From: an uncultured Vicinamibacteraceae bacterium
GTDB taxonomy: Bacteria > Acidobacteriota > Vicinamibacteria > Vicinamibacterales > UBA8438
Direction of reading: 5' to 3'
DNA length: 64,000 nucleotides
Assembly (NCBI GenBank): GCA_964591245.1
Contig: CAZPZZ010000005.1
Span: forward strand, 653 to 64,652
Shown: piece after piece, positions 37,339-63,655 of the stretch
Numbering within the stretch: the stretch's first letter is position 1
Layout of the letters: each line of letters opens with the position of its first letter
Notes under the pieces: generated by a model
What the model was told of the DNA's origin: nothing
Seen by the model: only the letters and a program-made list of their open reading frames with translations
The model's database searches: none
Program-made: the position numbers and the translations under genes

Positions 37339-40062
37339 CTACAGGGGCTCTGATCCCATGCGTGTGAGAATTTCGCCCAGGCGTTCGATTTCTTCCCCAT
37401 ACACTGCCCAGTTACCGTTTCGCTGGGCTCGCAGTGCCCGGCGGTAGTGCTCGCTGGCCTGTGCGACGAGCGGACTCTCGGTGGTGGGTAGGGCCGTCGT
37501 TTCTGGAAGTGTCGGTTCGTCTGGGGCGGTGCCGAGCATGCCGGCGACGAGAGCTCCCGGAGAAATGTCGTCTGAGGGCAATTCGTCATCTGAGAAGAGT
37601 CTGTTCAACGCCTGATCGAGCGATTCTTCCATCACGATCTGGTTCTGGTACGCCACGATGACGCGTCGTAGTTCGGGAATTCGCCCACCCGATGCTCGTA
37701 GGTACAGAGGGCGAATGTAGAGCAGGGCTTCCTCTATCGGGATCACGAGTAGGGTGCCCTGAATCACCTCAGAGCCCTGCTGGTTCCAGAGAGTGATCTG
37801 TGGCGAAATCTCCTGATCCTGGTTGATGCGCGCCACGATCTGGCTTGGTCCGAATACGACTTTCTGCTTCGGGAACTGAAACACAAGCACCTTGCCATAC
37901 TGGTCGGCGTCACTTCGAGCGACCATCCAGGCGGCGAGGTTGTTCTTACCGCGGGGGGTGAACGGCAACATCTGGATGTACTCCGCCTGCTCTTCACCCG
38001 GAAGTCGCATGATGGTGTAGTAGGGCTCCATCTGTTCGTTGTCGATGACGGGCACCTCCCACTGGTCTTCACGGTTGTAGAACACTGCCGGGTTCGTCAT
38101 GTGATACGTCGAATAGATCGACGTTTGCAGTGAGAAGAGCCCTTCGGGATATCGGATGTGTCGCCGGAGATCTTCCGGCATTTCGTCCAGGGGTTTGAGA
38201 AAGTCCGGAAAAATGATTTCCAAGGTTCGAGCGATCGGCTCGTTGGGGTCTGCCAGATAAAACGAGGTTGTGCCATCGTACGCGTCGACGACGATCTTGA
38301 CCGGATTACGGATGTAGTTGATACCGCTCGTCACGGGTGCCGCGTAGGGGTAGCGATTACTGACGGTGTACGCATCGAGAATCCAGTGAAGTCGACCCTC
38401 CGAAATCACCAGATACGGATCCGTATCGTATTGGAGGAATGGAGCGATATTACTCACACGATCCAGGATGTTTCGGTGATACAGAATCCGACTCTCGTTG
38501 CCGAGCTGGCTAGCCACGAGAATCTCGTAAGCGCGAAAGCGGACGGCGAACAAGAACTGTCGGAGCAATGAGGACATTGCTACGCCGCCGGCACCGTCGT
38601 ACCGCGTCGACACGTTGTCGTCGCCTTCGGGGTAGTGAAATTCGTCGGTTTCCGTGTTGACGATGACGTAGTCGTTGGACAGTTCACCGAAGTAAACGCT
38701 GGGCTGATCCACCGTAAGGTCTACCGAGGATGTCGGTGGTAAATCCTGAATGAACAGCACCGGCAAGCCTTCCTGGGTTACCTGGTTGACTGGACCCAGG
38801 GCCACGCCGAATCCGTGAGTATATTGCAGATGTTCGTTGACCCACGATCGGTTTGGGAGACTGTCGGAGTTCAATTCACGACTCGACAACATGATCTGGC
38901 GGTACTCGCCGTTGACGTAATACCGATCGTTGTCGACAGACGCAAAGTCGTAATAGGTCCTGATTTCCTGTATTTGTCCGAAGGTGTCGAGAAGTGGTTC
39001 GTGATCCCAGAGCCGAACATTGTTGATCGTCTGGGTGTTGTTCTCGATGTCGGCGAGCGTGAGTGTGGCGTCGCCAGAGAGCTCTCGCGCCTCAACGAGT
39101 TCGAGCCCAAAGGCCTGGCGTGTCGCTGCGATGTTGTGTTCGATGTACGGGGCCTCGCGTTGTTGTTCGTCCGGTGTGACGACGAGGCGCTGTAAGCCGA
39201 CACTACCGATGTTTCCCCCTATCGTGACCAATGCGTACAAGCCGAACGCAACACCAAAAGGTGCGTTACGAGGGGTGAACGCCGATACGGTACACAATCC
39301 TGCGCCCACCAGTGCCACGAACAGCACTAGGCGAAGTATGGGAATACCCAGCGTGACATCGACGTACGATGCCCCGTGAATAATGCTTGCCGGGGTGGTG
39401 AGAATTCTGGGGACGTCGAGATAGGCGCCCCAAGCCAGCAAGAGAAACAATCCGGCCATGATGAGGCCGAGGTGTCGCCTGGCTTCGTTGCTGACCACTG
39501 GACCTTCGGTGGGAGACAAAGCGAGCTGACCCGAGATGACGTAAACGGCGGTGCAACCGATGAGGGACAGGACAACGACCGTCAGCGTGAGGTAGCGAGC
39601 CAGATCCAAGAACGGGAGCGAAAAAATATAGAAGCTGGCGTCCCGCCCGAATAGTGGATCGGTCTGGCCAAACGGCACCGCGTTCTGAAACATCAGCCAC
39701 GTCAGCCACTCGTTCGACGCAAAGAGGGCGAGGAAGAGACTGAGTAAGGTCGCGATAGCCCTGGTTAGCATCTTGAGCTGGCGAGGCTCAAGCACGACCG
39801 GCTGAATGTCACCGCCGCCGGGAAACAGCATGTACGGCCGCGTGAATCGTTTCAACGCCAGCCGCAAGTTCATGGAAAGACAGCCGAAAGCGAGGAAAAA
39901 CACTACGCTTCCCATCGTTGCTTTGGCTGTAAGCGTTCGTGTGAAAATGCCGTCATAGGCAACTTCGTTGAACCATAGCCATTCGGTGGCCAACTCGATG
40001 ATCGAGGGCATCACCGTGAAGACCAACAGAACAACGAGTAGAAGGATGAATCTCGCTGGCAT
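37339..40062 (-). CDS. UPF0182 family large membrane protein
   Basis: From the ATG at 40062 the product reads MPARFILLLVVLLVFTVMPSIIELATEWLWFNEVAYDGIFTRTL... It has an N-terminal multi-TM region plus a large soluble domain, ~907 aa. The 189-aa ORF-track extension is low-complexity and unlikely to be real. Confidence 0.85.
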   Translation of the reverse strand: MPARFILLLVVLLVFTVMPSIIELATEWLWFNEVAYDGIFTRTLTAKATMGSVVFFLAFGCLSMNLRLALKRFTRPYMLFPGGGDIQPVVLEPRQLKMLTRAIATLLSLFLALFASNEWLTWLMFQNAVPFGQTDPLFGRDASFYIFSLPFLDLARYLTLTVVVLSLIGCTAVYVISGQLALSPTEGPVVSNEARRHLGLIMAGLFLLLAWGAYLDVPRILTTPASIIHGASYVDVTLGIPILRLVLFVALVGAGLCTVSAFTPRNAPFGVAFGLYALVTIGGNIGSVGLQRLVVTPDEQQREAPYIEHNIAATRQAFGLELVEARELSGDATLTLADIENNTQTINNVRLWDHEPLLDTFGQIQEIRTYYDFASVDNDRYYVNGEYRQIMLSSRELNSDSLPNRSWVNEHLQYTHGFGVALGPVNQVTQEGLPVLFIQDLPPTSSVDLTVDQPSVYFGELSNDYVIVNTETDEFHYPEGDDNVSTRYDGAGGVAMSSLLRQFLFAVRFRAYEILVASQLGNESRILYHRNILDRVSNIAPFLQYDTDPYLVISEGRLHWILDAYTVSNRYPYAAPVTSGINYIRNPVKIVVDAYDGTTSFYLADPNEPIARTLEIIFPDFLKPLDEMPEDLRRHIRYPEGLFSLQTSIYSTYHMTNPAVFYNREDQWEVPVIDNEQMEPYYTIMRLPGEEQAEYIQMLPFTPRGKNNLAAWMVARSDADQYGKVLVFQFPKQKVVFGPSQIVARINQDQEISPQITLWNQQGSEVIQGTLLVIPIEEALLYIRPLYLRASGGRIPELRRVIVAYQNQIVMEESLDQALNRLFSDDELPSDDISPGALVAGMLGTAPDEPTLPETTALPTTESPLVAQASEHYRRALRAQRNGNWAVYGEEIERLGEILTRMGSEPL

Positions 40063-40502
40063 TCTTTGCCTCGCGTGGCCACTCGACGCGGTTATCAGAG
40101 GGAAGATTCCCTCAGTTTTAATGTAAGTGAGCACACTGCCCACCCCTAGCAGCGTACGTGACCGGCTCCTCGGACGCAACCAGAACTGGAAGAAAAGAGG
40201 ATGGAGACCTGGTGGCCAGTTTCGAATGGACTTCAGGTAGCGCGGTGGCTGGTGTCGAGTACTATTGCCACACGACGTCGATTCTCGCGCTGCTGTCGCG
40301 CGCTCGAATGCTCGGCGCGGTGGGTCCGCCAGGCGATTGAGGCACTGGGACCGACGCCCGAGTGAGTATTGGTGCGAGGTTGCCGTTTCTAGGTCGTGTC
40401 CTCGAAGAATTGTGAGACGCATCGTTCCCGTTCGACATAGATTCGCGGTCGTGGAAGGAAAATCACAGACACTGAGCGCTCGGCAGTGAGAGGTGATCCA
40501 GC

Positions 40503-40937
40503 ATGAGTGACCGGAAGTATCGACAACGCGGTTACCAGGACGAGTCTCGTGAAAAGGCTCCGCCGCCTTCGCGGCAGGACCGTGGCGACGGTGCGCCGCG
40601 CGGCGTGACGAATCGTCAGCATCGGACACCGAACATGCCGGGTTTTCACGAGGTGATGCGTTGCGCGCGATGTGGTCAAACGTTGCGACGGGCCATCGGT
40701 CAGGACTCGACGTGTCCGAGTTGTGGCACGGCGTTGCATACCTGTGCTCAGTGCGCCTCGTTTGATAGCGGCAGCCAATTCGAGTGTTTGCAACCCATCA
40801 GCGCGAGGGTGTCACCCAAAGACGCTCGAAATACTTGTCGCTACTTTGCGGCGCAGGTCACTGTCGAGAGGCAGACCCACTCTACGGTCACCGGACCCCG
40901 CGGCGCGAAGCAAGCCTTCGACGATTTATTCAAGTGA
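40503..40937 (+). CDS. Zinc-ribbon hypothetical protein
   Basis: ATG at 40503. The N-terminus is basic and disordered. It is followed by CARCG-x15-CPSCG and CAQC motifs. Confidence 0.6.
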   Translation: MSDRKYRQRGYQDESREKAPPPSRQDRGDGAPRGVTNRQHRTPNMPGFHEVMRCARCGQTLRRAIGQDSTCPSCGTALHTCAQCASFDSGSQFECLQPISARVSPKDARNTCRYFAAQVTVERQTHSTVTGPRGAKQAFDDLFK

Positions 40938-41024: not shown

Positions 41025-41675
41025 ATGGACGCTCGAAATCCGCTTGATCTTGAGGCCGCATTGGCCGACGTGAGCGCGCCCGTGAAGCTTGTCTTCTTCA
41101 CGCAGACTTTCGGGTGCGATAGTTGCCTACCGGCACGCCAGGCGCTTGACCGACTGGCGTCGTTGTCCGACCAGATCACCGTGGAAGAGTTCAATCTGGT
41201 ACTGGACAAAGCTGAAGCGACCGCCTATGGAATCCAGCGTGCGCCGGCGATAGCGGTCGTTGGAGGAAGCGACACGGGCATCCGGTTTTACGGGGTTCCC
41301 GATGGCTACGAGCTTGTCTCTCTGGTCGAGTCGATTCTTCTCGTCGCCTCCGGGGTTTCTGGGCTCAGCGACGAGAGTCACGCGGTGGTGGCGGCGGTCA
41401 CGGAGCCGGTGGATATTCAGGTCTTCGTGACACCAACCTGACCGCATTGTCCCCAGGTGGTCAACCTGGCCCAGCGGCTTGCGTTCGCGAGCCCTCACAT
41501 AACGGCGGCTGCGGTCGCCGCGGTGGAATATCCCGACCTGGTGCGGCAGTACCGGGTCACCGGGGTGCCGAAAACCGTGGTGAACGAGCGCACGGAAATC
41601 TTGGGTGCGCTCCCGGAGGCTGATTTCGTCAGCCAGGTGCTCGCTGACACTAACGACCCCGAGCCACTTGCATGA
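41025..41675 (+). CDS. Two-domain PDO/glutaredoxin-like thiol-disulfide oxidoreductase with in-frame TGA (candidate selenocysteine) in the second redox motif
   Basis: The track ORFs 41025..41441 and 41457..41675 are in the same frame and are separated only by a TGA at 41439-41441. Read-through gives VDIQVFVTPT-U-PHCPQVVNLAQRLA...EYPDLVRQYRVTGVPKTVV, matching the FVTPTCPYCP...EYPE...VP unit of PfPDO/TIGR02187-type proteins. The first unit keeps CDSC (41115-41126). A SECIS-like hairpin follows. Confidence 0.7.
41442..41477 (+). promoter_or_regulatory. Candidate bacterial SECIS element
   Basis: Immediately 3' of the TGA the sequence reads CCGC-AUUGUCC-CCAGGU-GGUCA-ACCUGG-CCCA-GCGG. It has a 6-bp upper stem, a 4-bp lower stem and an apical loop starting GGUC 17 nt after the UGA. 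Confidence 0.5.
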
Positions 41676-43621
41676 TCTTCCCTGTTCGTACCTTGCCCGT
41701 GCTCAGTCTGATTGTGGTTGCGGCCGCATTGGGGGGCGGCGCGATGGCATTGATGCCGCGTCCAGGGGGGCAGACGGGAGTCGCTGACGCGGATGGGCCC
41801 ACGATCCATTATGTGTTGAGCTTCCCAGAGGCTGCGCATCGATGGATGCAGGTCGAGGTGACTGCCGTCGGGGTGCCACCTGCCGCTCTGAGCATGCGGA
41901 TGAGCACCGCGTCTCCGGGGCGCTATGCGCGACATGCTTTTGCCAAGAACGTGTTTGACGTTCGGGCGTATGACGGCGCTGGCAATGCCCTGTCGCCAAC
42001 ACGGTCGGGCATGGCTCGATGGGATGTCGATGGTCATGATGGAACCGTGCGGTTTACCTACCGCGTCTACGGCGACCGAGTCGATGGGACATATCTGGCC
42101 ATTGACGAAACTCATGCGCACATCAATATGCCTGCGGCATTGATGTGGGTGAACGGTCTGGAGCATCGCTCGGCGACGATCCGGTTCGAGCCCCCCGCCT
42201 CCAGTGGGTGGCGAGTAGCGAGCCAGCTCTACCCTACTGAGGATCCGCTGAGTTTCACGTCGCCTAATCTCCAGTACCTGCTCGACAGCCCGAGCGAACT
42301 GAGTCGTTTCGCGGAGCGCTCGTTTTCGGTCGTTGACCCAAGTGATCCGGGGCATCGACCGACTTTTCGTATTGCACTGCACCACGACGGCGGAGACCAG
42401 GAACTCAATGGCTACGCGGCAGACGTTGAACGGATTGTCCGTGAAATGGTTGCTGTCTTCCGCGAGTTTCCCCCGTTCGAAACCGGCCGGTACACCTTTA
42501 TCGCGGACTATCTGCCCACTGCGAGCGGCGACGCGATGGAACATCGAAACAGTACCGTCCTGAGTTCGTCGGGATCATTGCGTGGACAGCATCGTTTTCT
42601 GCTGGGCTCGGTTTCCCATGAGTTTTTTCATGTATGGAACGTTGAGCGCATCCGGCCTCGTTCGTTGGAACCGTTCGACTTTGAGACCGTTAATCCGTCT
42701 GGCGAACTGTGGTTGGCGGAGGGCGTGACCAACTACTACGGAGCCCTGATCCTGCAACGCACCGGTCTGGCGACGTTGTCCGACACACTCGAACGTTTTA
42801 GCGCGGCCATCAACACCGTACGCCTTGGTCCGGGACGCCGGTTTCGCTCGGTCGCGGACATGGGAAGACTGGCGCCGTTTACGGACGCCGCAGTGGCGAT
42901 CGACCGTACGAACTGGGACAACCTTTTCATCTCGTATTACACCTGGGGAGAGGCCTTGGGGTTGGGGCTGGACCTCTTGCTCCGGGCTCGGGCTGATGCA
43001 CAGCCCGACACATCCCCGATTACGCTGGATGACTACATGCGCGTGATGTGGGATCGGTTCGGGCGAGCCGGAGGCGTGGTTCCCGGGACCGTTGATCGAC
43101 CGTATACTCAGGCCGACGCACAGGCCGCCCTGGCCGATCTGACGGGGGATGCAGCATTTGCAGAAATGTTTTTCGCCCGCTATATCGAAGGAACCGAAGT
43201 TATCGATTACGCGCCACTCTTCGCCCGAGCGGGGCTGAGGTTACGTCCCCGCAATCCCGATCGCATGTGGTTGGGTGCTCCGGCGCTCCGTTTTGAACGC
43301 GGCGGGGCCCGGGTCGTTGCTCCGGTACGTTTCGGTTCACCGCTCTCTGAGGCCGGCATTGCTCGAGATGACGTGTTGGTTTCACTCGACAATCGGTCCC
43401 TTTCGTCGCGCGGGCGGCTCGAGACATTGCTTCGTGAGCTGCGGGGCCAAAGCGGCGTGATGCTCGAGTACCTCCGTCGGGGTGAGCCCCGTCAGGCTCA
43501 ACTTGTCGTGGAGCCGGATCCCGCCTTGGAGCTGGTTTCGCTCGAGCAACTGGGCGAGCGTCCGACGCCAGATCAGAGACTGTTTCGCGATAACTGGTTG
43601 GGCTCCCAGATCGAGAATTGA
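41672..43621 (+). CDS. M61 family glycyl aminopeptidase with C-terminal PDZ domain
   Basis: HEFFHVWNVERIRP is the zinc motif. The C-terminal PDZ-like segment reads SPLSEAGIARDDVLVSLDN. Has an N-terminal signal or anchor. The start overlaps the upstream stop (ATGA). Confidence 0.85.
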   Translation: MIFPVRTLPVLSLIVVAAALGGGAMALMPRPGGQTGVADADGPTIHYVLSFPEAAHRWMQVEVTAVGVPPAALSMRMSTASPGRYARHAFAKNVFDVRAYDGAGNALSPTRSGMARWDVDGHDGTVRFTYRVYGDRVDGTYLAIDETHAHINMPAALMWVNGLEHRSATIRFEPPASSGWRVASQLYPTEDPLSFTSPNLQYLLDSPSELSRFAERSFSVVDPSDPGHRPTFRIALHHDGGDQELNGYAADVERIVREMVAVFREFPPFETGRYTFIADYLPTASGDAMEHRNSTVLSSSGSLRGQHRFLLGSVSHEFFHVWNVERIRPRSLEPFDFETVNPSGELWLAEGVTNYYGALILQRTGLATLSDTLERFSAAINTVRLGPGRRFRSVADMGRLAPFTDAAVAIDRTNWDNLFISYYTWGEALGLGLDLLLRARADAQPDTSPITLDDYMRVMWDRFGRAGGVVPGTVDRPYTQADAQAALADLTGDAAFAEMFFARYIEGTEVIDYAPLFARAGLRLRPRNPDRMWLGAPALRFERGGARVVAPVRFGSPLSEAGIARDDVLVSLDNRSLSSRGRLETLLRELRGQSGVMLEYLRRGEPRQAQLVVEPDPALELVSLEQLGERPTPDQRLFRDNWLGSQIEN

Positions 43622-43645: not shown

Positions 43646-46060
43646 ATGAATACTGAGGAACGCGATCCGGTCTGTGGCATGACGGTCGATCCGGCCAAGA
43701 GTCGGTTCAACCATGTCTACGCCGGAGGGACCTACTACTTCTGTTGTGGTGGGTGTCAGGCCGCCTTCGTGGCAGATCCAGAACAATATCTCCATCCACC
43801 TGAAGCACCCGTGGCACCCGAGGCTCCACCTGGTACATGGTTCACATGTCCGATGGATCCTGAGGTTCGGACACAGACAGCGGGGCCGTGCCCGAAGTGC
43901 GGGATGTCGCTCGAGGCGGTCATTGATGTAGCCACGATGCTGCCCTCCATCGAGTACATCTGTCCCATGCACTCGGATGTGGTGCGGCTTGAGCCAGAGC
44001 CGTGTCCGCACTGCGGAATGGCGCTGGAACCCCGTACAGTGGATCCCGGGGACCAGCCGAACCCGGAACTCGATGACATGACCCGCAGATTCTGGCGTGG
44101 AACTGTTATCGGATTTCCTGTATTCGTTCTCGCGATGGCCGAAATGTTTCTGGGTGATCGTATTGCCCAGTCCGTCGGTCGCATGACATCGAATTGGATT
44201 CAGCTGATCTTTGCGACACCAGTGGTGTTGTGGGTCGGTCGTCCGCTGTTTGAGCGCGCCTGGGCTTCGCTTGGCAACCGAAGTCCGAATATGTTCACGC
44301 TGATTGGGCTCGGGGTCGGGGCAGCCTACGCGTACAGCGTATCGGCAACGGTGGTGCCGGGGGTTTTTCCCGCTGGCTTTCGGATGGCTGGTGGCATCGA
44401 GCCGTACTTCGATACGTCGGTGGTCATCATTGTGCTTGTGCTCTTGGGGCAGGTCCTTGAGTTACGGGCGCGCAGCCGGACTGGCGCGGCACTCAGGGCG
44501 CTCCTTGGCCTTGTTCCGACGACGGCAAGGCGGGTGGCTGAGTGCGGCAACGAGACGGATGTACCCCTGAGTGACATCCAGGTTGGCGACGTGTTGCGCG
44601 TGCGTCCGGGAGAACGGATTCCGGTGGACGGTCTGGTGGTGGACGGAGCGAGTGCGGTCGATGAGTCGATGTTGACCGGCGAACCGGTCCCGGTTGAAAA
44701 AATCGAAGGGACGCATGTGGTCGGCGCCACGATGAATGGAACCGGTGCGTTGCTGATGCGGGCCGAGCGGGTGGGAGGCGAGACACTGCTGGCACAGATC
44801 GTTGCCATGGTAGGTGAGGCGCAGCGCAGTCGTGCCCCGATCCAGCGCGTTGCCGATCGGTTGGCCTCCGTCTTCGTGCCGTCTGTCGTTGCGGTGGCGT
44901 TGTTCGCCTTCATGGGGTGGTCGTTGTGGGGCCCTGAGCCTCGGCTGGCTCTGGCCCTTGTCAGTGCCGTAGCGGTGCTCATCATTGCCTGCCCGTGTGC
45001 TCTAGGGCTGGCGACGCCGATGGCGGTGATGGTAGGAATGGGTCGAGGGGCCGGGGTTGGTGTGCTGATCAAGCACGCCGAAGCCCTCGAACTCTTGGAG
45101 CGGGTAGACACATTGATTGTCGACAAGACTGGCACCCTGACGGAGGGGCACCCCAGCGTGGAGGCGGTTGTGTCGCTCGATGGTATCGAGGAAGAGGAAA
45201 TCCTTCGCGTGGCGGCGGGGCTGGAACAAGGGAGCGAGCATCCCTTGGCAGCAGCGGTTGTCCGGGCGGCGGCGGCGCGGAACCTTGTCGTGCCGAAGGC
45301 CTCGGAATTTCGTACCGAGATTGGTCTCGGTGTTACCGGAACTGTCGATGGGCGAGGTGTAATGCTGGGGACAGCGGCGTTACTTGATGCCCGGGATGTC
45401 GACACATCCATGCTAGCGATCCAGGCCGACGAGTTTCGCCAGCGCGGGCAGACTGTTGTGTACGTGGCCTTTGACGGCAAGCTGGTTGGCCTCCTTGCCG
45501 TCGCCGACCCGATAAAGGCGACCACGGCCGCGGCCGTCCGTGAGTTGCAGAGGGAAGGGCTCACGATCATCATGGCGACCGGTGACAATGAAGCGACGGC
45601 CGGCGCCGTAGCGTCGGATCTGGGTATTGACCAGATACAGGCCGGTGTTCTTCCGGCCGGTAAACAGCGTCTCATTGCCGAGCATCAGAAAGCGGGTCAT
45701 GTTGTGGCGATGGCGGGAGATGGGATCAATGACGCACCCGCGCTTGCGGCCGCAGACGTGGGCATCGCCATGGGAACCGGTACCGATGTGGCTATCGAAA
45801 GCGCCGGCGTGACCCTGGTGCGTGGTGATCTTCGCGCAATAGCTCAGGCCAGGCGACTCAGCCGTGCCACCATGCGTAACATCCGCCAGAATCTCTTTCT
45901 GGCATTCATCTACAACGCGCTCGGAGTTCCGGTGGCGGCCGGCTTGCTCTATCCCGTATTTGGTGTGTTCATCAGTCCCGTCTGGGCCAGCGTCGCCATG
46001 ACCGCGAGTTCTTTGTCGGTGATCTCCAACGCCCTCCGTCTGCGTCGCGTCGAGCTATAA
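43646..46060 (+). CDS. copA: Copper-translocating P1B-type ATPase
   Basis: The N-terminus has a YHS/TRASH-like DPVCGMTV...[12 protein letters not shown] plus two CPM-x9-11-CP-x-CGM modules. Also present are the CPC transmembrane motif ([12 protein letters not shown]), DKTGTLT and [10 protein letters not shown]. Confidence 0.9.
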
Positions 46061-48109: not shown

Positions 48110-48164
48110 TCCCGACATGATAAAGTGGAGATCGTCAATTAACGATTCAATAAAGGTGCTTCTC

Positions 48165-49202
48165 ATGTTGCAGCGGCTTAGTGTCCTCTGTGTCGTCGTA
48201 GCGGTTTCGGCCGCTTGCGGCGCTCCCACGCTCGCGCAGTCGGATGGTCAGACTGAAAGTGCGGTCGTGGCCTCGGTAGGCGATCGTATGGTGACGATGG
48301 ACGATCTAGATGCTGCATGGCGCAGCAACGATGCGGGATCTCGTTTGCGGATGCTCCAGGAGCTATACGAGACACGCCGTCGTACGCTGGATGTCGTTGT
48401 CGGGGAAATCTTGGTCGAGCGTGAGGCGATTGCACGTGGCACGTCCCGAGATGAATTGTTGGCGCAGGAACTTCCGTCGCGGACCCCGCCGGTGACCGAC
48501 GAGGAGATCTCTCTGGTGTACCAGCAAAATCGAAACTCGTTTCCCGGACAGACGGAAGAACAGCTGGCGCCCCAGATTCGGGCGTTTCTAGAGCAGCAGC
48601 GCCCCATGCAGGCGCTCCATGCCTACATGAACGAACTCCGGGATTCAGCAGCGAACGACATTCGTATTGAGCTTGAGCCGCCGCGGACAGAGGTGTCGGT
48701 GGAGGCAGGTGATCCGGTATTTGGCCCAGACAGTGCTCGTGTCGAAATCATCGAGTTCTCTGATTTCCAGTGTCCGTATTGCCAACGGCTGACGGAGACG
48801 TTGCAGGAGCTGAAAGAGGAATACGGCGACGACATTCGCCTCGTATTCAAGGATTATCCACTCCCGAACCATGCTGAAGCGTTCAAGGCAGCTGAAGCCG
48901 GTCTGTGCGCGAATGAGCAGGGGAAATTCTGGGAACTTCATGACGCGATGTTCGAAAATCAAAACGAACTTGGCGTTGATGCGTTGAAGCGGCAGGTTGG
49001 AGCGCTTGGTCTCGACCAGGCGGCTTTTGATAGCTGTTTAGACAGCGACCGGTTTGCCGATGAGGTGCGGGCTGATTTGTTGCAAGGCCAAGGGCTCGGT
49101 GTGAGTTCCACGCCGACCGTCTTCGTGAATGGACGGGCCGTGTTGGGAGCTGCGCCGTTTGCGACGTTCGACCAGATCATTCGAGAAGAATTGGCCCGGT
49201 AG
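48165..49202 (+). CDS. DsbA-family thiol:disulfide oxidoreductase lipoprotein
   Basis: MLQRLSVLCVVVAVSAACG contains a lipobox. The thioredoxin domain reads IIEFSDFQCPYCQRL...FKDYPLPNHAEAFKAAEAGLCA. Confidence 0.85.
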   Translation: MLQRLSVLCVVVAVSAACGAPTLAQSDGQTESAVVASVGDRMVTMDDLDAAWRSNDAGSRLRMLQELYETRRRTLDVVVGEILVEREAIARGTSRDELLAQELPSRTPPVTDEEISLVYQQNRNSFPGQTEEQLAPQIRAFLEQQRPMQALHAYMNELRDSAANDIRIELEPPRTEVSVEAGDPVFGPDSARVEIIEFSDFQCPYCQRLTETLQELKEEYGDDIRLVFKDYPLPNHAEAFKAAEAGLCANEQGKFWELHDAMFENQNELGVDALKRQVGALGLDQAAFDSCLDSDRFADEVRADLLQGQGLGVSSTPTVFVNGRAVLGAAPFATFDQIIREELAR

Positions 49203-49311: not shown

Positions 49312-50064
49312 TCAATCAGCTGCTGCAGCGAGACGCGCCCCCTCCTCTGCCAGGAAGGCATCGTAGTCACTTGCTTCCATGATGCTCACAAACCCGCGCA
49401 TGCGATAGTGTCCGAGTCCACACAGTTGTGAGCAGTTGATCTCGAATTCACCGGTCTCGGTGGGCTGCCACCAGACGGGAATCTCCATACCGGGAATGGC
49501 GTCCTGCTTCACCCGCATTTCCAGGATTGCGAAGCTGTGAATGACGTCCATTGTCGTCAAATACACGATAACTGGATCGTCGACCGGTAGATTCAGCTGG
49601 TTGATGGTGTGGATGTCATCCGCTCCTGCTGGGTCGGCCCGGTCTAGCCCGATCGCGTTGGTTGAGGTGATCAGACTTGAGTCCCGACGTCCGAATCGGC
49701 CGTCGGGGCCTGGATAGACAGAATGCCATTCAAATTGTTTGGCGATTACGTGTACGACCGTGGCGCCATCCTCAGGTGGGAACGCATTGACCCGGGTGGC
49801 CCAGGCCGGGATGGCGAACGCCAGTAGGATGATCGCTTCGATGACCGCGACGGCACCTTCAAGGTAGCTTGATGTGTGACTCTTGACGCCGGCGTAATCC
49901 GCTGTCGGGTTGGCCGACGCGCGGAAGCGGATGAGGGTGTAGACGAAGAAGATCCCCCAACCCACGAATAACGCCAGCATGAGCCAGTGAATGATAACGA
50001 TGATTCGGTCGATTTCGGCGGCGTGGGCCGAGGCCTGCAACGGCAGTCCCAGTAACTCCTGCAT
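49312..50064 (-). CDS. coxB: Cytochrome c oxidase subunit II (no fused cytochrome c domain)
   Basis: Two N-terminal TM helices are present. The CuA motif is HSFAILEM...CSQLCGLGHYRM. Confidence 0.9.
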   Translation of the reverse strand: MQELLGLPLQASAHAAEIDRIIVIIHWLMLALFVGWGIFFVYTLIRFRASANPTADYAGVKSHTSSYLEGAVAVIEAIILLAFAIPAWATRVNAFPPEDGATVVHVIAKQFEWHSVYPGPDGRFGRRDSSLITSTNAIGLDRADPAGADDIHTINQLNLPVDDPVIVYLTTMDVIHSFAILEMRVKQDAIPGMEIPVWWQPTETGEFEINCSQLCGLGHYRMRGFVSIMEASDYDAFLAEEGARLAAAAD

Positions 50065-51577: not shown

Positions 51578-53368
51578 TTATCCCTTGGCGGGTGACGGGT
51601 CGGCGTCTGCGCCCGCTCCCTGCATGACGAAGTCGCTGGATGCTCCAGGCACACTGTATTCGTAGGGGCCACGGTGCACTTCGGGCGGCGTCGTGAAATT
51701 CCCGTGTGGCGGCGGTGACGGTGTCTGCCACTCGAGTGTGGTTGATTGCCAGGGGTTGTCGTCTACCTGTTTTCCGTTTCGAATGCTCCAGAAGAAGTTG
51801 AAGATGAAGAAGATCTGGAAGAATCCGAGTGCCCAGGCGCCGTACGACATGACCGCGTTCCAGCCCATCACTTCCTGCGCGTGGGCGTACGTCATACCCC
51901 CGTCATAGAGTCGTCGGTTGACACCAGCGAGCCCCGTGATGAACATCGGCATGAAGACGAACTGTATCGCTACGAACGAGCCCCAGAAGTGAATTTTACC
52001 GAGGATTTCGCTCATCACCCGGCCGGTAGCCTTCGGGTACCAGTAGTAGATGCCTGCGAACAGGGCAAAGATCGTTCCCGGTGCGACGACGTAGTGGAAG
52101 TGTCCGATGACGTACTGGGTGTCGTGGAAGTGTAGATCAGGCGCTGTCAAGCCCAGCGGCAAACCCGTGAGTCCGCCGATGGCGAACATCGGCAGAAACG
52201 CGAGCGCAAAGAGCATCGGAACCGGATAGCGGATCGATCCACCATAGAGGGAGATCAGTAGAGCCGACAGAATGACGACTGATGGTACCGAAATGATCAT
52301 CGTGGTCGTCTGGAAGAACGAACTCATTGTCGTGCCCATGCCAGTCATGAACATGTGATGTGCCCAGACCACGAATGACATGAAACCCAGAAAGATGACC
52401 GAGTAGACCAGTGCGCGATAGCCCCACAGCGGCTTCCTGGTGTTATTGGCGATGACCTCGGCCACGATACCCATCGCGGGCAGGATCAACACATACACTT
52501 CAGGGTGAGCCAAGAACCAGAAGAGGTGCTGCCAGAGTAGCGGGCTGCCGCCACCACTGTAGGGTAGAACCTGATCCGTGACGACGAGCCCACTGGGCAT
52601 GAAGAAACTTGTCTCGGCCACGCGGTCCATGAGCTGCAGGACGCCCGCTGCTTGCAGTGGCGGAAACGCCAGCAGTAGCAAGAATGAGGTCACGAGCTGG
52701 GCCCACACGAAGAACGGCAACCGCATGAAGCTGAGGCCTGGGGCGCGAAGCTGCAAGGTTGTCACGATAAAATTGACAGAGCCGAGCAGCGACGACGCGA
52801 TCAGGAAGAGCATGCCGATCAGCCACCACGTTTGCCCCTGGGTGGCAATGACGGAGAGTGGTGCGTAAGACGTCCATCCGGAGTTGGCAGCGCCGCCCGG
52901 GACGAAGAAGCTGGCGAACATAACCACGCCACCGAGGAAGAAGGACCAATAGCTGGCCATATTCAACCGCGGAAAGGCCATATCAGGTGCGCCGATCTGC
53001 AGGGGTAGCACGTAGTTGCCAAATCCGCCGACGGCGAGCGGAACGACCCCGAGGAAGACCATGATCGTGCCGTGCATCGCCCCGAGCTGGTTGTAGAACT
53101 CAGGGAGCATGATGCCCCCGGGCGCGTTCGCTTGCCCGAGGAAGGTGCCGATTACCGGAATCGGTTGACCGGGGAACGCCAGCTGCCATCTCATCAGCAT
53201 CATCAGTGAGAAGCCGAAGAGCAGAAACAGCATTGCGGTGATGGCGTACTGAATGCCGATCACCTTGTGGTCGAGCGAGAAGACGTAGGTCCGAAGAAAA
53301 GTCGACTCGTGCGCATCGTGACCGTGGTCGGCGTGCGCAACTTGATCGGCGGTGGCCACGTTATCCAA
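51578..53368 (-). CDS. coxA: Cytochrome c oxidase subunit I
   Basis: Carries DHKVIGIQY, PDMAFPRLN, WQHLFWFLAHPEVYVLILP, VWAHHMF and GHFHYV. AAAGGAG lies 8 nt before the TTG at 53368. An alternative GTG start is at 53359. Confidence 0.95.
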   Translation of the reverse strand: MDNVATADQVAHADHGHDAHESTFLRTYVFSLDHKVIGIQYAITAMLFLLFGFSLMMLMRWQLAFPGQPIPVIGTFLGQANAPGGIMLPEFYNQLGAMHGTIMVFLGVVPLAVGGFGNYVLPLQIGAPDMAFPRLNMASYWSFFLGGVVMFASFFVPGGAANSGWTSYAPLSVIATQGQTWWLIGMLFLIASSLLGSVNFIVTTLQLRAPGLSFMRLPFFVWAQLVTSFLLLLAFPPLQAAGVLQLMDRVAETSFFMPSGLVVTDQVLPYSGGGSPLLWQHLFWFLAHPEVYVLILPAMGIVAEVIANNTRKPLWGYRALVYSVIFLGFMSFVVWAHHMFMTGMGTTMSSFFQTTTMIISVPSVVILSALLISLYGGSIRYPVPMLFALAFLPMFAIGGLTGLPLGLTAPDLHFHDTQYVIGHFHYVVAPGTIFALFAGIYYWYPKATGRVMSEILGKIHFWGSFVAIQFVFMPMFITGLAGVNRRLYDGGMTYAHAQEVMGWNAVMSYGAWALGFFQIFFIFNFFWSIRNGKQVDDNPWQSTTLEWQTPSPPPHGNFTTPPEVHRGPYEYSVPGASSDFVMQGAGADADPSPAKG

Positions 53369-55730: not shown

Positions 55731-55827
55731 GATATCTTTATATACGACCAATCTGGTCGCCAATGAATAGAAATCCCAGCGCTTGACAAGATTGTTGAGA
55801 GCGCGGTCTGTCTGCCGAGAGAATCTC

Positions 55828-57270
55828 ATGAGTACTGCGACACAAACCGTCGAAGAGCTTGCCAAGCAAGAATACAAGTACGGATTCGTCACGGATGTCG
55901 AGCAGGATTCCATCCCTGAAGGGCTTGATGAGGATGTTATTCGGCTAATCTCGGCGAAGAAAGAAGAGCCCGAGTGGCTTCTCGACTGGCGGCTGAACGC
56001 GTTTCGGGTGTGGTCAAAGATGGTCGAGCCCGCGTGGCACAATGTGCACTATCCCCCGGTCGACTACCAGAGCATCAGTTACTACTCGGCGCCGAAACAG
56101 AAGAAAGAGGTGAAGAGCCTCGACGAGGTCGATCCTGAAATCCGTGCCACGTTCGATAAATTGGGGATTTCGCTCGATGAGCAGAAGCGGCTGTCCGGTG
56201 TGGCCGTCGATGCTGTATTCGACAGCGTCTCGGTCGCGACGACATTCAAGGACACACTAGCGAATCTCGGCATTATCTTTTGCTCGTTCTCGGAGGCCGT
56301 CCGGGATCATCCCGAGCTCGTCCGAAAGTATCTGGGCACGGTGGTGCCGCATTCCGACAATTTCTTCGCTGCTCTTAACTCTGCCGTCTTCTCTGATGGT
56401 TCGTTCGCTTACATTCCCAAGGGCGTGAAATGTCCGATGGAGCTGTCCACGTACTTCCGCATCAATGCGGCGAATACTGGTCAGTTCGAACGTACGTTGC
56501 TCGTTGCCGATGAAGGGGCTGAGGTTAGTTATTTGGAGGGGTGCACGGCCCCGCAACGTGACGAGAATCAACTTCACGCGGCGGTGGTGGAGCTGGTTGC
56601 ACTCGATAACGCGACCATCAAATACTCGACCGTTCAGAACTGGTACCCGGGCGACAAGGATGGTAAAGGCGGTATCTACAACTTCGTAACGAAGCGCGGT
56701 AAAGCGCTGACCAATGCCAAAGTAACCTGGACGCAGGTTGAGACGGGTTCCGCGATCACCTGGAAATATCCGAGTTGCATTTTGCAGGGTGATAACTCTG
56801 TGGGTGAGTTCTATTCCGTCGCGGTGACGAATAACCGTCAGCAGGCTGATACCGGGACGAAGATGGTGCACTTGGGTAAGAACACCCGAAGCACCATCGT
56901 GTCGAAGGGGATTTCGGCCGGGTTGGGTCAGAACACGTATCGCGGGTTGGTGCGTATTGGAAAAGGTGCCCGCGGCGCCAGAAATTTCTCTCAGTGTGAC
57001 TCACTGTTGATCGGAGACCGGTGTGGTGCACACACCTTCCCGTATCTCGAGGTGAAGAACACGTCGTCACAGGTCGAGCATGAAGCCTCGACCTCGAAGA
57101 TCGGGGAGGATCAGATTTTCTATTGCCGCCAGCGGGGTCTATCGACCGAAGACGCCGTGAACCTCATCGTCAACGGATTCTGCAAAGAGGTCTTCCGTGA
57201 ACTCCCAATGGAGTTCGCCGTCGAGGCACAGAAGCTGCTCAGCATCAGTCTCGAGGGTAGTGTCGGATAG
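55828..57270 (+). CDS. sufB: Fe-S cluster assembly scaffold SufB
   Basis: Carries [47 protein letters not shown] and [15 protein letters not shown]. Confidence 0.95.
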
Positions 57271-57295
57271 CGGATGACAATTGAGAGATTACAGC

Positions 57296-58057
57296 ATGCT
57301 CGACATTCGTGAGTTGCACGCCAGTGCTGGCGGGCGAGATATTCTCAAGGGGATCACCCTTTCAGTGCACGCCGGTGAGGTCCACGACATCATGGGGCCG
57401 AACGGCTCGGGTAAGAGCACCTTGGCTGGGGTCTTGGCCGGCCGGGATGGTCTCGACGTGACTGCCGGTTCCGTGAATTTTCAAGGGCAGAATCTTCTGG
57501 ACCTCGAGCCCGAAGAGCGGGCCCGCGAAGGGGTGTTTCTAGCGTTCCAATACCCCGTCGAGATTCCTGGAGTCAACAACGCGTACCTGCTCAAGGCGGC
57601 GCTGAACGAAGTGCGCAAACATCGTGGTGAGCCTGAACTCGACGCGATGGATTTCATGAAGTTGATCCGTGAGCGGATGAAGTTGCTCGAAATGGATGAC
57701 AGCCTGCTGAACCGGCCCGTTAACGAAGGGTTTTCAGGGGGCGAGAAGAAGCGGAACGAAATCTTTCAGCTTGCTGTACTCGAGCCGTCTTTGGCGATTC
57801 TCGACGAGACCGATTCTGGACTCGACATCGACGCCCTGAAGGTCGTTGCCGGCGGGGTCAATGCCTTGCGGAGCCCAGAGCGTTCGATGGTAGTGGTTAC
57901 CCACTACCAACGCTTGCTGACATATATCGTGCCTGACTTCGTCCATGTTCTTTCAGGCGGTCGGATCGTCAAGTCTGGTGGTAAGGAGCTAGCGCTCGAG
58001 CTTGAGGAGAAGGGTTACGGCTGGCTCGAGGCGAAGTCGACGACGGCGGCTGTGTAA
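57296..58057 (+). CDS. sufC: Fe-S cluster assembly ATPase SufC
   Basis: Carries MLDIRELHA, GPNGSGKSTL (Walker A), LNEGFSGGEKKRNEI and LAILDETDSGLD. Confidence 0.95.
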   Translation: MLDIRELHASAGGRDILKGITLSVHAGEVHDIMGPNGSGKSTLAGVLAGRDGLDVTAGSVNFQGQNLLDLEPEERAREGVFLAFQYPVEIPGVNNAYLLKAALNEVRKHRGEPELDAMDFMKLIRERMKLLEMDDSLLNRPVNEGFSGGEKKRNEIFQLAVLEPSLAILDETDSGLDIDALKVVAGGVNALRSPERSMVVVTHYQRLLTYIVPDFVHVLSGGRIVKSGGKELALELEEKGYGWLEAKSTTAAV

Positions 58058-58069
58058 CCGGTTGTTCCT

Positions 58070-59392
58070 ATGATCCAGATGGCTACGAGTGCGGAGGGCT
58101 ACGCTGCCCAATTTGAAGCAATCAAGGAGGCCGTGTCGTTGCCAGGGACATTGGCCGCGTTGCGGGACGATGCATTTGCCGGTTTCGGCCGACTCGGGTT
58201 TCCCACGACTCGTCTCGAGGACTGGCGGTTTACGAATGTGTCGCCAATCGCCGAGACGCAATTCTCGGTAGCGTCTGCACCGGGAGACTATGACAAAGCG
58301 GCTCTCGAGGCGTTACGTTTGCCCGCGCTGGGTGGCCCAGAGCTTGTCTTTGTAAATGGCCTTTTTGAACCTGCTCTCAGTACGACTGAGGGACTGCCTC
58401 ACGGTGTGAAGGCGAGAAGCTTGGCGTCTGTTCTGGCTCAAGACCCCGACACGCTCTCGCCGTATCTCGGTCGGTTGGCATCGACTGAGAACAAGGCATT
58501 CACGGCACTCAATACCGCGTTCCTGCGCGACGGTGCAGTGGTTGAGGTGCCGGCCGGCGTCGTCGTGGAGAGGCCGATTCACCTGGTATTTGTGTCGATG
58601 TCCTCGGAGACACCGGCGCTGAGCCAACCGAGAGTGTTGTTACTCGCGGGTGCGAATAGTCAGGTGCGGGTGGTCGAGAGTCATGCCGGCGATCGCGACG
58701 TTGCGTATCTGAGTAACGCGGTAACCGAGGTGCTGGTCGATGAGCATGCTGTCGTAGATCACTATGCGCTGATACGCGAGGCCGAGTCTGCGTTTCACAT
58801 CGGTGCACTCCATGCGAAGCTCGGGCGTGCGAGCAGGTTTTCATCTCACGCCATTACCTTGAGTGGATCGATTGTGAGGAATGAGGGGATCGTTGTCCTT
58901 GATGGTGAGGGCGGCGAATGCACGCTGAATGGTCTGTATCTCGCGGAAGCGAGCCAACTTGTCGACAACCAGACGACTATCGATCACGCCCAACCCCACT
59001 GCGATAGCCACGAGCTGTACAAAGGAATCCTTGATGGCCGGAGCCGGGGTGTCTTCAACGGCAAGATTGTGGTGCGCCTTGACGCGCAGAAAACCGATGC
59101 GAAACAGTCCAACAAGGCGTTGTTGCTGTCTGAGGACGCTCAGGTGACGACCAAGCCTCAACTGGAGATTTTCGCGGACGACGTAAAGTGTACGCATGGT
59201 GCGACCGTCGGTCAGCTCGACGAGGACTCGTTGTTCTACCTGCGGTCCCGAGCATTGTCTGAGCATCAGGCCCGGCAGCTTCTAATACATGCGTTCGCGG
59301 CCGATCTACTCGGACACATCAAGATCGACGCCATTCGACATCAGCTCGATACGCTGCTCTTGGAGCGCCTGCCGCTCGGGGTTGAACGGTGA
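58070..59392 (+). CDS. sufD: Fe-S cluster assembly protein SufD
   Basis: Its position is between sufC and sufS. The C-terminal beta-helix region reads KALLLSEDAQVTTKPQLEIFADDVKCTHGATVGQLDEDSLFYLRSRAL. Confidence 0.9.
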   Translation: MIQMATSAEGYAAQFEAIKEAVSLPGTLAALRDDAFAGFGRLGFPTTRLEDWRFTNVSPIAETQFSVASAPGDYDKAALEALRLPALGGPELVFVNGLFEPALSTTEGLPHGVKARSLASVLAQDPDTLSPYLGRLASTENKAFTALNTAFLRDGAVVEVPAGVVVERPIHLVFVSMSSETPALSQPRVLLLAGANSQVRVVESHAGDRDVAYLSNAVTEVLVDEHAVVDHYALIREAESAFHIGALHAKLGRASRFSSHAITLSGSIVRNEGIVVLDGEGGECTLNGLYLAEASQLVDNQTTIDHAQPHCDSHELYKGILDGRSRGVFNGKIVVRLDAQKTDAKQSNKALLLSEDAQVTTKPQLEIFADDVKCTHGATVGQLDEDSLFYLRSRALSEHQARQLLIHAFAADLLGHIKIDAIRHQLDTLLLERLPLGVER

Positions 59393-60660
59393 ATGCGGGT
59401 GAGGCGCTGACTCCGGGTGTTGGAATGCCGGAGACCGTACCAGTACTTGATGAAGATTGGGTTCGCGCACAATTTCCGATTCTTTCCGAGACGGTCCGCG
59501 GCGTACCGCTTGTCTATCTTGATAATGCGGCGACGACGCAGAAGCCTCAATCCGTTCTCGACGCTCTCGCGCGCTATTACGCATCGCAGAACGCGAATAT
59601 TCATCGCGGCGTCTATCAGTTGAGTCAGGAGGCCACCCAGGCCTATGAAGATGCGCGCGGTAAGGTGGCCACCTTTCTGAACGCGGCAGAGTCTGCAGAG
59701 ATCATCTTCACGCGCAACGCGACAGAGGGCATTAATTTGGTTGCGCAGACCTTTGGGCGCAGCACCGTGAGCGCGGGAGATGAGGTGGTGATCTCCACGA
59801 TGGAGCATCACTCGAATATCGTTCCCTGGCAACTCCTATGTGAAGAGAAGGGGGCGCGCCTGAGGGTTGTGCCGATCTCTGACGCCGGCGAGCTGATGCT
59901 CGATGAATTTGAGTCTCTCATTGGCCCACGGACGAAGCTTGTCTCGATTGTGCATATGTCGAACTCGCTCGGCACGGTCAATCCGGTGCGTCGAGTCGTA
60001 GAGTTGGCCCATAGGCATGATGTTCCGGTTTTGGTTGATGGTTCGCAGGCGGCGTACCATATGCCCGTGGATGTGCAGGCGATCGGGTGTGATTTCTATG
60101 TGGTCACGGGTCATAAACTCTATGGACCTACGGGTATTGGCGCGCTCTACGGGCGCCGCCAGTTGCTTGATGCGATGCCTCCCTATCAGGGGGGGGGCGA
60201 TATGATCAGCTCGGTGACGTTCGAGCGAACGACCTACAATGAGGTGCCCCACAAGTTTGAGGCGGGGACACCGCACATTGCCGGGGCTATCGGTCTTGGA
60301 GCGGCGGTGGACTTCATTGATGGTGTCGGGTTCGGGGCCATTGCCGCCCACGAGCGCCGCCTGCTTGAGTACGCCACCGCTGCCCTGCTGGAGGTGCCGG
60401 GTTTACGACTCATCGGGACTGCACGAGAGAAGGCGAGCATCTTGTCATTCGTGCTGGATGGTGTGCACGCGCACGACATCGGGACGATCGTGGATACCGA
60501 GGGGGTAGCTATTCGTACCGGGCACCACTGTACCCAACCGGTCATGGACCGTTTTGGTGTGCCGGCCACGGCTCGGGCCTCGCTCGCCATGTACAACACG
60601 GCTAGTGAGATCGATCGGCTGGTAGCGGCGCTCTCCAAAGTTCGGGAGGTATTTGGTTAA
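59389..60660 (+). CDS. sufS: Cysteine desulfurase SufS (group II)
   Basis: Carries YLDNAATTQKP, TGHKLYGPTGIGALYG (PLP lysine) and RTGHHCTQP (catalytic Cys). The GTG start overlaps the sufD TGA. Confidence 0.95.
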   Translation: MNAGEALTPGVGMPETVPVLDEDWVRAQFPILSETVRGVPLVYLDNAATTQKPQSVLDALARYYASQNANIHRGVYQLSQEATQAYEDARGKVATFLNAAESAEIIFTRNATEGINLVAQTFGRSTVSAGDEVVISTMEHHSNIVPWQLLCEEKGARLRVVPISDAGELMLDEFESLIGPRTKLVSIVHMSNSLGTVNPVRRVVELAHRHDVPVLVDGSQAAYHMPVDVQAIGCDFYVVTGHKLYGPTGIGALYGRRQLLDAMPPYQGGGDMISSVTFERTTYNEVPHKFEAGTPHIAGAIGLGAAVDFIDGVGFGAIAAHERRLLEYATAALLEVPGLRLIGTAREKASILSFVLDGVHAHDIGTIVDTEGVAIRTGHHCTQPVMDRFGVPATARASLAMYNTASEIDRLVAALSKVREVFG

Positions 60661-61116
60661 GTGTCTGACCTGCGAGACCTCTATCAAGAGGTTATTCTCG
60701 ATCACAACAGGAGCCCGCGAAACTTCGGGGCTCTCGAAGATGCCGATGCGCAGGCCGATGGCCACAACCCACTCTGCGGTGATCGTCTCTCTGTGGCGGT
60801 CAAGCTGGATGATGGCGTGGTGACGGATTTGCGCTTCGAAGGCTCTGGTTGCGCGATTTCCAAGGCATCGGCCTCGCTGATGACCGAAGAGGTCAAAGGC
60901 AAGACACTCGACGAAACTTTGGCCCTGTTCGAGCGTTTTCACAAACTCGTGACCGACCATTCGGATTCGCATGTCGATGGTGACACGGACTTAGGCAAGC
61001 TCGCAGTATTCGCAGGTGTGCGAGATTATCCAGCTAGAGTGAAGTGCGCGGTGCTGGCGTGGCATACGTTGCGGGCGGCGGTCGATGGCCATCATGATGT
61101 GGTCTCAACGGAGTGA
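60661..61116 (+). CDS. sufU: SufU/NifU-like Fe-S assembly (sulfur acceptor) protein
   Basis: Carries LYQEVILDHNRSPRNFG, NPLCGD and FEGSGCAISKASASLM. GTG start. Confidence 0.9.
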   Translation: MSDLRDLYQEVILDHNRSPRNFGALEDADAQADGHNPLCGDRLSVAVKLDDGVVTDLRFEGSGCAISKASASLMTEEVKGKTLDETLALFERFHKLVTDHSDSHVDGDTDLGKLAVFAGVRDYPARVKCAVLAWHTLRAAVDGHHDVVSTE

Positions 61117-61119
61117 TAC

Positions 61120-63334: not shown

Positions 63335-63655
63335 TGCAATGGGGGGAACTCTGGTAGCTGTGCCGAGACGGCGTGTGCTGCAGAGTTCTCTGTTGCACCT
63401 GTATCTCGGTCGGCACGTCCGGGACTTGTGGTGAATTTCCACGTGCAGGTCCGTGGTTGCGTGCGAGATACCGCGTCGGGCGTACCGGGGATGTGAAGCC
63501 TGGATCGGGTGCTGGCAGTTCTCAGCGTTTCAGCCTATAGTTTGGCCGGAGCGGATCGTTGTCGGTGATGGCGTCGTCGTGTCAGTGTTTCGGTCTTATC
63601 GGTTGTACGTCGCTCACCATTTATTTCCACCGTTGCAATTGTCATACATATGGTC

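Follow-up and report, generated by a model that had tools for sequence, protein, structure and literature searches.

The stretch of DNA analysed here, referred to as the window, comprises 64,000 nucleotides from an uncultured Vicinamibacteraceae bacterium of the phylum Acidobacteriota (contig CAZPZZ010000005.1, positions 653 to 64,652), and the gene of interest is one for a protein disulfide oxidoreductase (PDO) in which an in-frame TGA codon probably specifies selenocysteine (Sec). The gene lies at 41025-41675 on the plus strand as a single frame of 216 codons plus a stop, and translation confirmed that its sole internal stop is the TGA at 41439-41441. In the list of open reading frames (ORFs) the frame is split into 41025..41441 (138 aa) and 41457..41675 (72 aa, GTG start), and the codon context around the break reads VDIQVFVTPT-TGA-PHCPQVVNLAQ. 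This TGA is codon 139 and aligns with the first (nucleophilic) Cys of the C-terminal active site, giving the motif U-P-H-C in which Cys142 (41448-41450) is the second redox residue. The first thioredoxin-fold unit carries an ordinary CDSC motif (Cys31 and Cys34, codons 31-34, 41115-41126). The true stop of the gene is the TGA at 41673-41675, which overlaps the ATG (41672-41674) of a gene encoding a 649-aa M61 peptidase, forming an ATGA junction. The initial annotation, made from the sequence and its ORFs, had described the two fragments in one frame, the intact CDSC motif and the translational coupling to the peptidase, and all of these were found as described. TGA terminates 22 of the 47 long ORFs of the window, the PDO gene included, and its use as an ordinary stop argues against a reassigned code.

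With Cys placed at codon 139, the read-through product matched the NCBIfam model TIGR02187.2 (PDO_seleno_TRX) at 231 bits (E 8.8e-69) over profile positions 8-207 of 209, the curated cut-off of this model being 185 bits. Its second unit (residues 130-206) matched Pfam Thioredoxin_3. The best matches in the PDB were the PDOs of Aquifex aeolicus (2YWM/2AYT, E 1e-33) and Pyrococcus furiosus (1A8L, 4e-32), and further matches were found to the PDOs of P. horikoshii (1J08) and Aeropyrum pernix (2HLS) and, more remotely, to the N-terminal domain of AhpF (1ZYN, 1e-10). These alignments span residues 10-207, right across the TGA, and place CDSC opposite CESC and TGA-PHC opposite CGYC of the Aquifex PDO. 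When the product was aligned by MAFFT with 11 full-length homologs, C31 and C34 were invariant and the TGA column was occupied by Cys (TPTC-x-x-CP) in all 11. The by-eye alignment of the initial annotation with Pyrococcus-type PDOs and TIGR02187, and its placement of the TGA on the first Cys of the second CxxC, are therefore both upheld, and the homology search that it had proposed for the read-through translation returned homologs that cross the TGA with Cys. Given a score above the family cut-off, two thioredoxin-fold units in one chain and a CxxC-type site in each, the product is predicted to be a PDO-family oxidoreductase with two thioredoxin folds, encoded by a single gene. More than 2890 homologs were found at E<=1e-10, mostly metagenome proteins, and the few with a source name were from Acidobacteria or Vicinamibacterales.

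The related loci that were fetched are labelled L001-L036, with L027-L036 belonging to the same lineage as the window. Protein identity to the window was 88% for L001-L003, 80% for L024 and L026 and 76% for L020-L023, and the lineages with TGA at this codon (Sec-type) ranged from 74 to 88% overall. TGA was found at codon 139 in L001-L004, L020-L024, L026 and L027-L036 as well as in the Bacillota loci L005-L007, so that every close relative examined carries the UGA, and wherever DNA was read the stop at this position was always TGA and never TAA or TAG. Within the window lineage, indexes of independently assembled ENA, JGI and Logan data place an identical 138-aa product on at least 23 contigs. 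All ten contigs fetched from this lineage had the TGA, with 0-4 differences from the window in the gene, and one of them (L027) was 99.7% identical to the window over 20 kb. On this record of independent assemblies the TGA is taken to be genuine and not a sequencing error.

The same arrangement was seen more widely when the N-terminal 138 residues were used for searching. The best 120 clusters (67-99% identity) were nearly all 136-140 aa long, and all 120 ended in ...(V/I)(F/Y)(V/A/S)TPT, immediately ahead of the Cys/Sec position. Their N-terminal motif was CDTC, CETC, CESC or CDSC in 118 and CDAC or CEIC in the other two. Several of these truncated clusters are located on contigs of 6-7 Mb, and the few that are named are from Acidobacteria or an Acidobacteriota bacterium. 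Homologs with Cys at this position (Cys-type) were at most 65% identical to the window product, and all 120 truncated clusters were closer to it than any of these, which indicates that the TGA form is the norm in this acidobacterial clade. Coincidence of the TGA with the catalytic Cys is far beyond chance, with Cys in 11/11 aligned homologs and 120/120 clusters ending in ...TPT. When DNA was scanned with a pattern requiring TGA in place of the Cys codon, PDO homologs with VFVTPT-TGA-PYCPQAV were likewise recovered, in two Bacillota metagenome-assembled genomes (MAGs) and one JGI metagenome contig; the Sec-types returned by pattern scans of genome and metagenome contig collections were from Bacillota only. 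Identity of the Bacillota Sec-type to the acidobacterial proteins is 44-48%, whether these are Sec- or Cys-types, whereas acidobacterial Sec- and Cys-types are 54-66% identical to each other; there are therefore two separate Sec lineages in one family.

Downstream of the UGA there is a stem-loop, CCAGGU-GGUCA-ACCUGG (41453-41469, plus strand), with a 6-bp stem and a 5-nt loop. It starts 11 nt past the UGA and occupies 17 nt, from +15 to +31 counted from the U of the UGA, and is present in both the minimum free energy (MFE) and centroid folds of 41436-41480. The MFE fold also contains a possible lower stem, CCGC (41442-41445) with GCGG (41471-41474), that would extend the element to 41442-41474. 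For comparison, the selenocysteine insertion sequence (SECIS) of E. coli fdhF was used, a sequence matched at 100% in 5412 of 5421 records, annotated as selenocysteine-containing fdhF. Its 17-nt stem-loop, GGUUGCAGGUCUGCACC, is also found at +15 to +31 and has GGUC in the apical loop. In the SelB-SECIS complex, the G and U of the loop are the bases recognised by SelB.

The hairpin at +15 to +31 is kept in all Sec-type lineages and shows no polymorphism in the ten fetched contigs of the window lineage. Its closing pair is U-A in the window, L001 and L004 and C-G in L020, L021, L024 and the Bacillota genes, a change on both sides of the helix. The Bacillota loop is CGUGC, so that a G-U at loop positions 2-3 is shared by both phyla. 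In L024, one pair is lost through a Gln-to-Lys change (C16 to A), and two synonymous changes are found alongside it (Pro CCC to CCG and Leu CUG to CUC). By inspection, these would apparently allow G15-C30 and C14-G31 to form with A16 bulged, giving again a 6-bp stem, although the MFE fold of L024 is a different structure. RNAalifold independently recovered the upper helix across the Sec-type lineages. In these, 95.8% of cells were paired, compared with 50% or less when the partners were slid, and none of 500 shuffles reached 95.8%. Six Cys-type controls with similar peptides formed 4, 4, 2, 4, 6 and 2 of the 6 pairs, the full stem being absent in five. Third-position variability across five Sec-type lineages was 0.45 over codons 0 to +10, compared with 0.73 upstream and 0.80 downstream. 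The gene therefore has an in-frame UGA/Cys pair with conservation on both sides and, just downstream, a stem-loop with a G in the apical loop, as is expected of a selenoprotein gene, and we regard 41453-41469 as a putative SECIS located at the canonical distance from the UGA.

We propose that the UGA at codon 139 is a Sec-decoding codon in a PDO selenoprotein, and from the sequence evidence we would put the probability of this at about 0.88. The initial annotation had suggested a UxxC selenoprotein with Sec in place of the first Cys of the second CxxC, and this suggestion is supported by the family assignment, the conservation of the TGA, the hairpin and the lack of a conserved restart codon (see below). 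A number of observations weigh against it. One of the six Cys-type controls, L018, forms the full stem, which implies that a P-Q-x-x-x-L-A coding sequence partly predisposes to a hairpin of this kind. The covariation consists of one pair in few lineages, and the lower stem of the window was not recovered by RNAalifold across lineages. The initial annotation had also proposed a covariance-model search of the region after the TGA, and here the Rfam SECIS models gave no match in 41300-41700 up to E = 10 and none at the gathering score in the whole window. Family models do poorly on bacterial SECIS elements, which are specific to the individual gene. The folding energy was not significant (z -0.4 to -0.9); however, since the validated fdhF element itself reached only z -1.33, these scores are uninformative. 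The peroxiredoxin partner of the mechanism proposed below has been deleted in the window lineage. Finally, no selA, selB or selD was found by Pfam or NCBIfam among the scanned ORFs of the 64-kb window (its long ORFs, with the exception of a few that reach about 140 aa at most) or in the fetched loci, and ARAGORN found no tRNA-Sec in the window or the fetched loci, the window containing no tRNA gene of any kind. The capacity of the organism to decode Sec is something we infer from the clade-wide conservation together with published acidobacterial selenoproteins, Acidobacteria having been credited with three selenoprotein families and four selenoproteins (Zhang et al. 2006).

Two further structures were noted in this region. 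The loop GGUCA is complementary to UGACC, that is, the UGA and the first two bases of the Pro codon, and an alternative hairpin can form at 41439-41463 that sequesters the UGA and competes with the SECIS fold. This was the MFE structure for a 62-nt segment of the window and a 46-nt segment of L024; the Bacillota genes lack it. The GGUC motif of the loop, together with the UGA-CCN context, probably gives rise to it incidentally. In the Cys-type gene L018 (L018:1001-1666, homolog P0097), the hairpin at the SECIS position is CCAGGC-UACCG-GUCUGG with 6-7 bp. It could have arisen by chance, or it could be what remains of a SECIS in a gene that reverted from Sec to Cys, a type of reversion described by Zhang et al. 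(2006).

The alternative that fares best, improbable as we consider it, is that the UGA is read through without Sec, with Cys or another residue being inserted by a suppressor tRNA (for example a tRNA-Cys of the selC* kind or an acidobacterial allo-tRNA whose anticodon is UCA) or by a near-cognate tRNA. A UGA followed by C is a weak termination context, and the failure to find Sec machinery in the window or the fetched loci is also in keeping with this alternative. Precedents exist, since tRNA-Sec-like tRNA-Cys opal suppressors are known in delta-proteobacteria and acidobacterial allo-tRNAs may act as nonsense suppressors (Mukai et al.). However, selC* was found in Firmicutes, Thermodesulfobacteria, Nitrospirae and Proteobacteria and not in Acidobacteria (Mukai et al.), and a general suppressor would be costly in a genome where TGA ends so many ORFs (22/47 in the window). 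Furthermore, the conservation of a hairpin at a fixed position, with the spacing expected for SelB and a GGUC loop like that of fdhF, implies delivery of the SelB type, and the family is already an established Sec/Cys pair family.

Slightly less probable still is that the TGA is a true stop, so that a 138-aa N-terminal thioredoxin-fold protein is made together with a separate C-terminal piece of about 59-72 aa, the two perhaps reassembling as a split protein. This is how gene callers have annotated the locus in every assembly, and in the window a GTG does lie five codons past the TGA. This GTG (codon +6) is shared with L001, whereas in L020, L021 and L024 the candidate restart is a GTG or ATG at +13, and at each of the two positions the other lineage group lacks a start codon, so that there is no conserved restart; the gene callers themselves place the start of the downstream "gene" differently, to give 72 aa or 59-60 aa. 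In the codons after the TGA, the window and L001 differ by 14 synonymous and 6 non-synonymous changes, which indicates purifying selection on this part, as would also be seen if it were translated as a separate fragment. The P-H-C-P peptide with the resolving Cys, however, precedes every candidate start and would be lost in spite of its conservation at the protein level. Neither fragment would have a full CxxC at this site or a full fold, as judged against the PDO structures. Two polypeptides are also made improbable by a stop that coincides with the catalytic Cys codon in every one of the 120 truncated clusters, and by the exclusive use of TGA wherever DNA was read. As to a pseudogene, or a sequencing or assembly error, a single base change from TGC or TGT would suffice to give TGA, but this is effectively refuted by the identical TGA in at least 23 indexed contigs of the same lineage (ten of them read), by its presence in a second phylum and in lineages whose protein identity falls to 74%, and by the mostly synonymous differences downstream.

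The comparison of the window with L001 also revealed a run of 68 identical nucleotides further downstream, at 41502-41569 (codons 160-182, ITAAAVAAVEYPDLVRQYRVTG), in a gene that is approximately 88% identical overall (P ~0.009 for a run of this length). Candidate causes are recombination, strong codon constraint or an additional RNA element. A test of identical runs between the two sequences had been considered as evidence for a SECIS and was dropped, since the 35-nt run that covers the TGA and the hairpin was second to this 68-nt run.

If codon 139 is decoded as Sec, SelB-GTP carrying Sec-tRNA(Sec) would bind the hairpin through its GGUC-containing loop and deliver selenocysteine at UGA139, after which translation would run on to the real stop at 41673-41675. 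The product would be a cytoplasmic PDO, with the CDSC site in its first fold and the U-P-H-C site in its second. Sec139, as a more reactive nucleophile of lower pKa, would be located at the site most important for thiol transfer, where it would attack substrate disulfides or the oxidised Cys of a peroxiredoxin to form a selenenylsulfide that Cys142 would resolve. The resulting Sec-Cys bond may then be re-reduced by an NAD(P)H-dependent flavoprotein of the thioredoxin reductase type. Such recycling would mirror the NADPH/thioredoxin reductase/PDO/Bcp system of Sulfolobus and the AhpF-AhpC system. In Sulfolobus solfataricus, the C-terminal CxxC of the PDO is essential for thiol-transferase activity, and NADPH and thioredoxin reductase supply the PDO with the electrons with which it regenerates the Bcp peroxiredoxins (2020 review).

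A selenoprotein of this kind is already known. The PDO family has been listed since 2004 as a predicted UxxC selenoprotein family of high confidence, the NCBIfam model itself is named PDO_seleno_TRX, and Sec-containing members have been reported from the anaerobe Carboxydothermus hydrogenoformans (78 C) and the microaerophile Symbiobacterium thermophilum (60 C) (Zhang et al. 2006). Like them, the window PDO matches TIGR02187 and has a UxxC motif whose only Sec takes the place of the first Cys in the C-terminal CxxC, and, as in their case, the prediction is based on a Sec/Cys pair and a downstream hairpin. The members L005-L007 from Bacillota MAGs have the same architecture. Unlike the listed members, the window gene is acidobacterial and lies in a locus with cytochrome c oxidase genes, and unlike the Bacillota Sec-type, to which it is 44-48% identical, it is closer to acidobacterial Cys-types, so that it belongs to a separate Sec lineage. 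In its clade, the Sec form is apparently the rule, and its gene forms a conserved module with those for a Cys-rich protein and the M61 peptidase.

Among proteins of known structure or function, the nearest are the PDOs of hyperthermophiles (1A8L, 2AYT/2YWM, 1J08, 2HLS and the S. solfataricus PDO), which also comprise two thioredoxin-fold units in approximately 26 kDa with a CxxC-type site in each. They align with the window product over residues 10-207 with E values from 1e-33 to 1e-21, and they have Cys at both sites, whereas the window PDO would have Sec at the C-terminal one. The N-terminal domain of AhpF (1ZYN, 1HYU) shares the double thioredoxin fold at E 1e-10, and the CxxC of its second unit passes electrons to the peroxiredoxin AhpC. 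In AhpF, however, this domain is part of a chain that also contains a thioredoxin-reductase-like flavoprotein, and its first unit carries no CxxC, while the window PDO is a stand-alone protein that keeps CDSC in unit 1. The putative SECIS resembles that of E. coli fdhF in being located inside the coding sequence right after the UGA, in its 17 nt at +15 to +31 and in the GGUC of its apical loop. It differs in the sequence of the stem, in a lower stem that is not conserved and in having no bulged U in the window, although by inspection L024 could form a stem with a bulged A; binding of SelB to the window hairpin is a prediction. PDOs have been stated to be exclusive to thermophiles (2020 review). 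By comparison, the PDO homologs described here come from contigs with genes for aerobic respiration, and their named sources are Acidobacteria or Vicinamibacterales.

What appears to be new is an acidobacterial Sec lineage in which the Sec form is apparently the fixed state of a large clade; the systematic mis-annotation of the gene as two ORFs and the gene-neighbourhood module are also new. In the limited selection of literature searched, which is no proof of priority, there was no mention of Acidobacteria for the PDO selenoprotein family. It is tempting to go further and to suggest that the PDO is obligately a selenoprotein throughout a large clade of Acidobacteriota bearing cytochrome c oxidase, within a previously undescribed module next to a Cu-ATPase. 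This stronger proposal is speculative and we consider it rather unlikely at present. If true, a group of bacteria that is abundant in the environment, and annotated in public databases as having no such need, would always require selenium for a redox function that may be connected with copper or with protein quality control.

The more immediate value is for annotation. Every assembly examined presents the gene as two pieces, one of 138-140 aa called "hypothetical / thioredoxin family / AhpF" and one of 59-72 aa that is a Thioredoxin_3 fragment, and at least 120 protein clusters in public databases share this two-ORF mis-annotation. Selenoprotein status would imply that the acidobacterial clade decodes Sec and needs selenium. 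The selenoprotein family, first reported from two thermophiles of which one is an anaerobe and the other a microaerophile, would thereby gain a lineage that is apparently aerobic and is not known to be a thermophile. The two Sec lineages in Acidobacteria and Bacillota, with SECIS hairpins at equal offset, also provide a small, clean data set on SECIS elements within constrained coding sequence. The finding reveals no new mechanism, its use being in annotation and in the selenium biology of Acidobacteriota.

The PDO gene has two invariant neighbours, the gene for a Cys-rich 144-aa protein upstream (40503-40937, plus strand) and that for the translationally coupled M61 peptidase downstream (41672-43621, plus strand). 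The latter is a glycyl-aminopeptidase-family protein with a PDZ domain (Pfam Peptidase_M61_N, Peptidase_M61 and PDZ_2), and the order PDO then M61 peptidase is common to Sec-type and Cys-type loci. The Cys-rich protein has three CxxC pairs on translation, resembling a zinc ribbon, and gave no Pfam or NCBIfam match. Its N-terminus is basic and probably disordered, and it is encoded directly upstream of the PDO in Sec- and Cys-type relatives. In all related loci reaching that far except L019, a gene of 142-168 aa without a Pfam match is found upstream of the PDO on the same strand, and in L019 a 144-aa gene at this position is on the opposite strand. The Cys-rich protein could be a partner or a substrate of the PDO. 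The M61 peptidase gene of L002 lacks, at 3090-3097, a segment of approximately 400 bp that both the window (42302-42701) and L001 contain, which reflects either a deletion or a mis-assembly in this metagenome scaffold.

A gene for a Bcp-type peroxiredoxin (152-158 aa, AhpC-TSA/Redoxin) is located upstream of the PDO in several Sec-type and Cys-type relatives. Compared with L002 (591-1112), the window lineage has lost approximately 520 bp containing this gene (158 aa in L002), of which the last ~11 codons remain at 40324-40356. The junction of the deletion is near 40318-40331, where the two blastn segments obtained with window positions 39746-40356 overlap by 14 bp. Since the peroxiredoxin gene is absent from all ten contigs of the window lineage, its loss is real and not an artefact of assembly. 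This means that peroxiredoxin recycling cannot be the sole role of the PDO in this lineage.

Further downstream of the M61 peptidase, the window encodes a Cu-ATPase with YHS and HMBD domains (43646-46060), an FAD-linked oxidase, DsbA (48117-49202), CoxB (49312-50064) and CtaD (51578-53368), and the redox and copper neighbourhood described in the initial annotation (Cu-ATPase, DsbA and cox operon) is thus present in full. A systematic scan of the window for ORFs split by TGA left the PDO as the only candidate. The sole further TGA-split frame outside any longer ORF, at 63435-63848 (plus strand), was rejected on account of its R-, W- and C-rich translation, which looks non-coding. An interrupted DsbA was also considered as a second selenoprotein, and the gene proved to be intact with a CPYC motif. 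The seemingly interrupted peroxiredoxin turned out to be the deletion remnant described above.

At the right-hand end of the window there is a complete Suf-type Fe-S operon (55783-61632, plus strand) that encodes SufB, an ABC ATPase (SufC-like), SufD, a class-V aminotransferase (a SufS-like cysteine desulfurase), NifU_N (SufU-like) and FeS_assembly_P. SufS-type enzymes can also act on selenocysteine, and the operon is not part of the Sec machinery. Near the other end, 220-4052 and 7218-10948 contain two paralogous gene pairs, each encoding a DUF1552 (HXXSHH) protein and a DUF1592/1588/1585/1587/1595 (PSD/PSCyt domains) protein. These are Planctomycete-type families, and one pair is found on the minus strand and the other on the plus strand.

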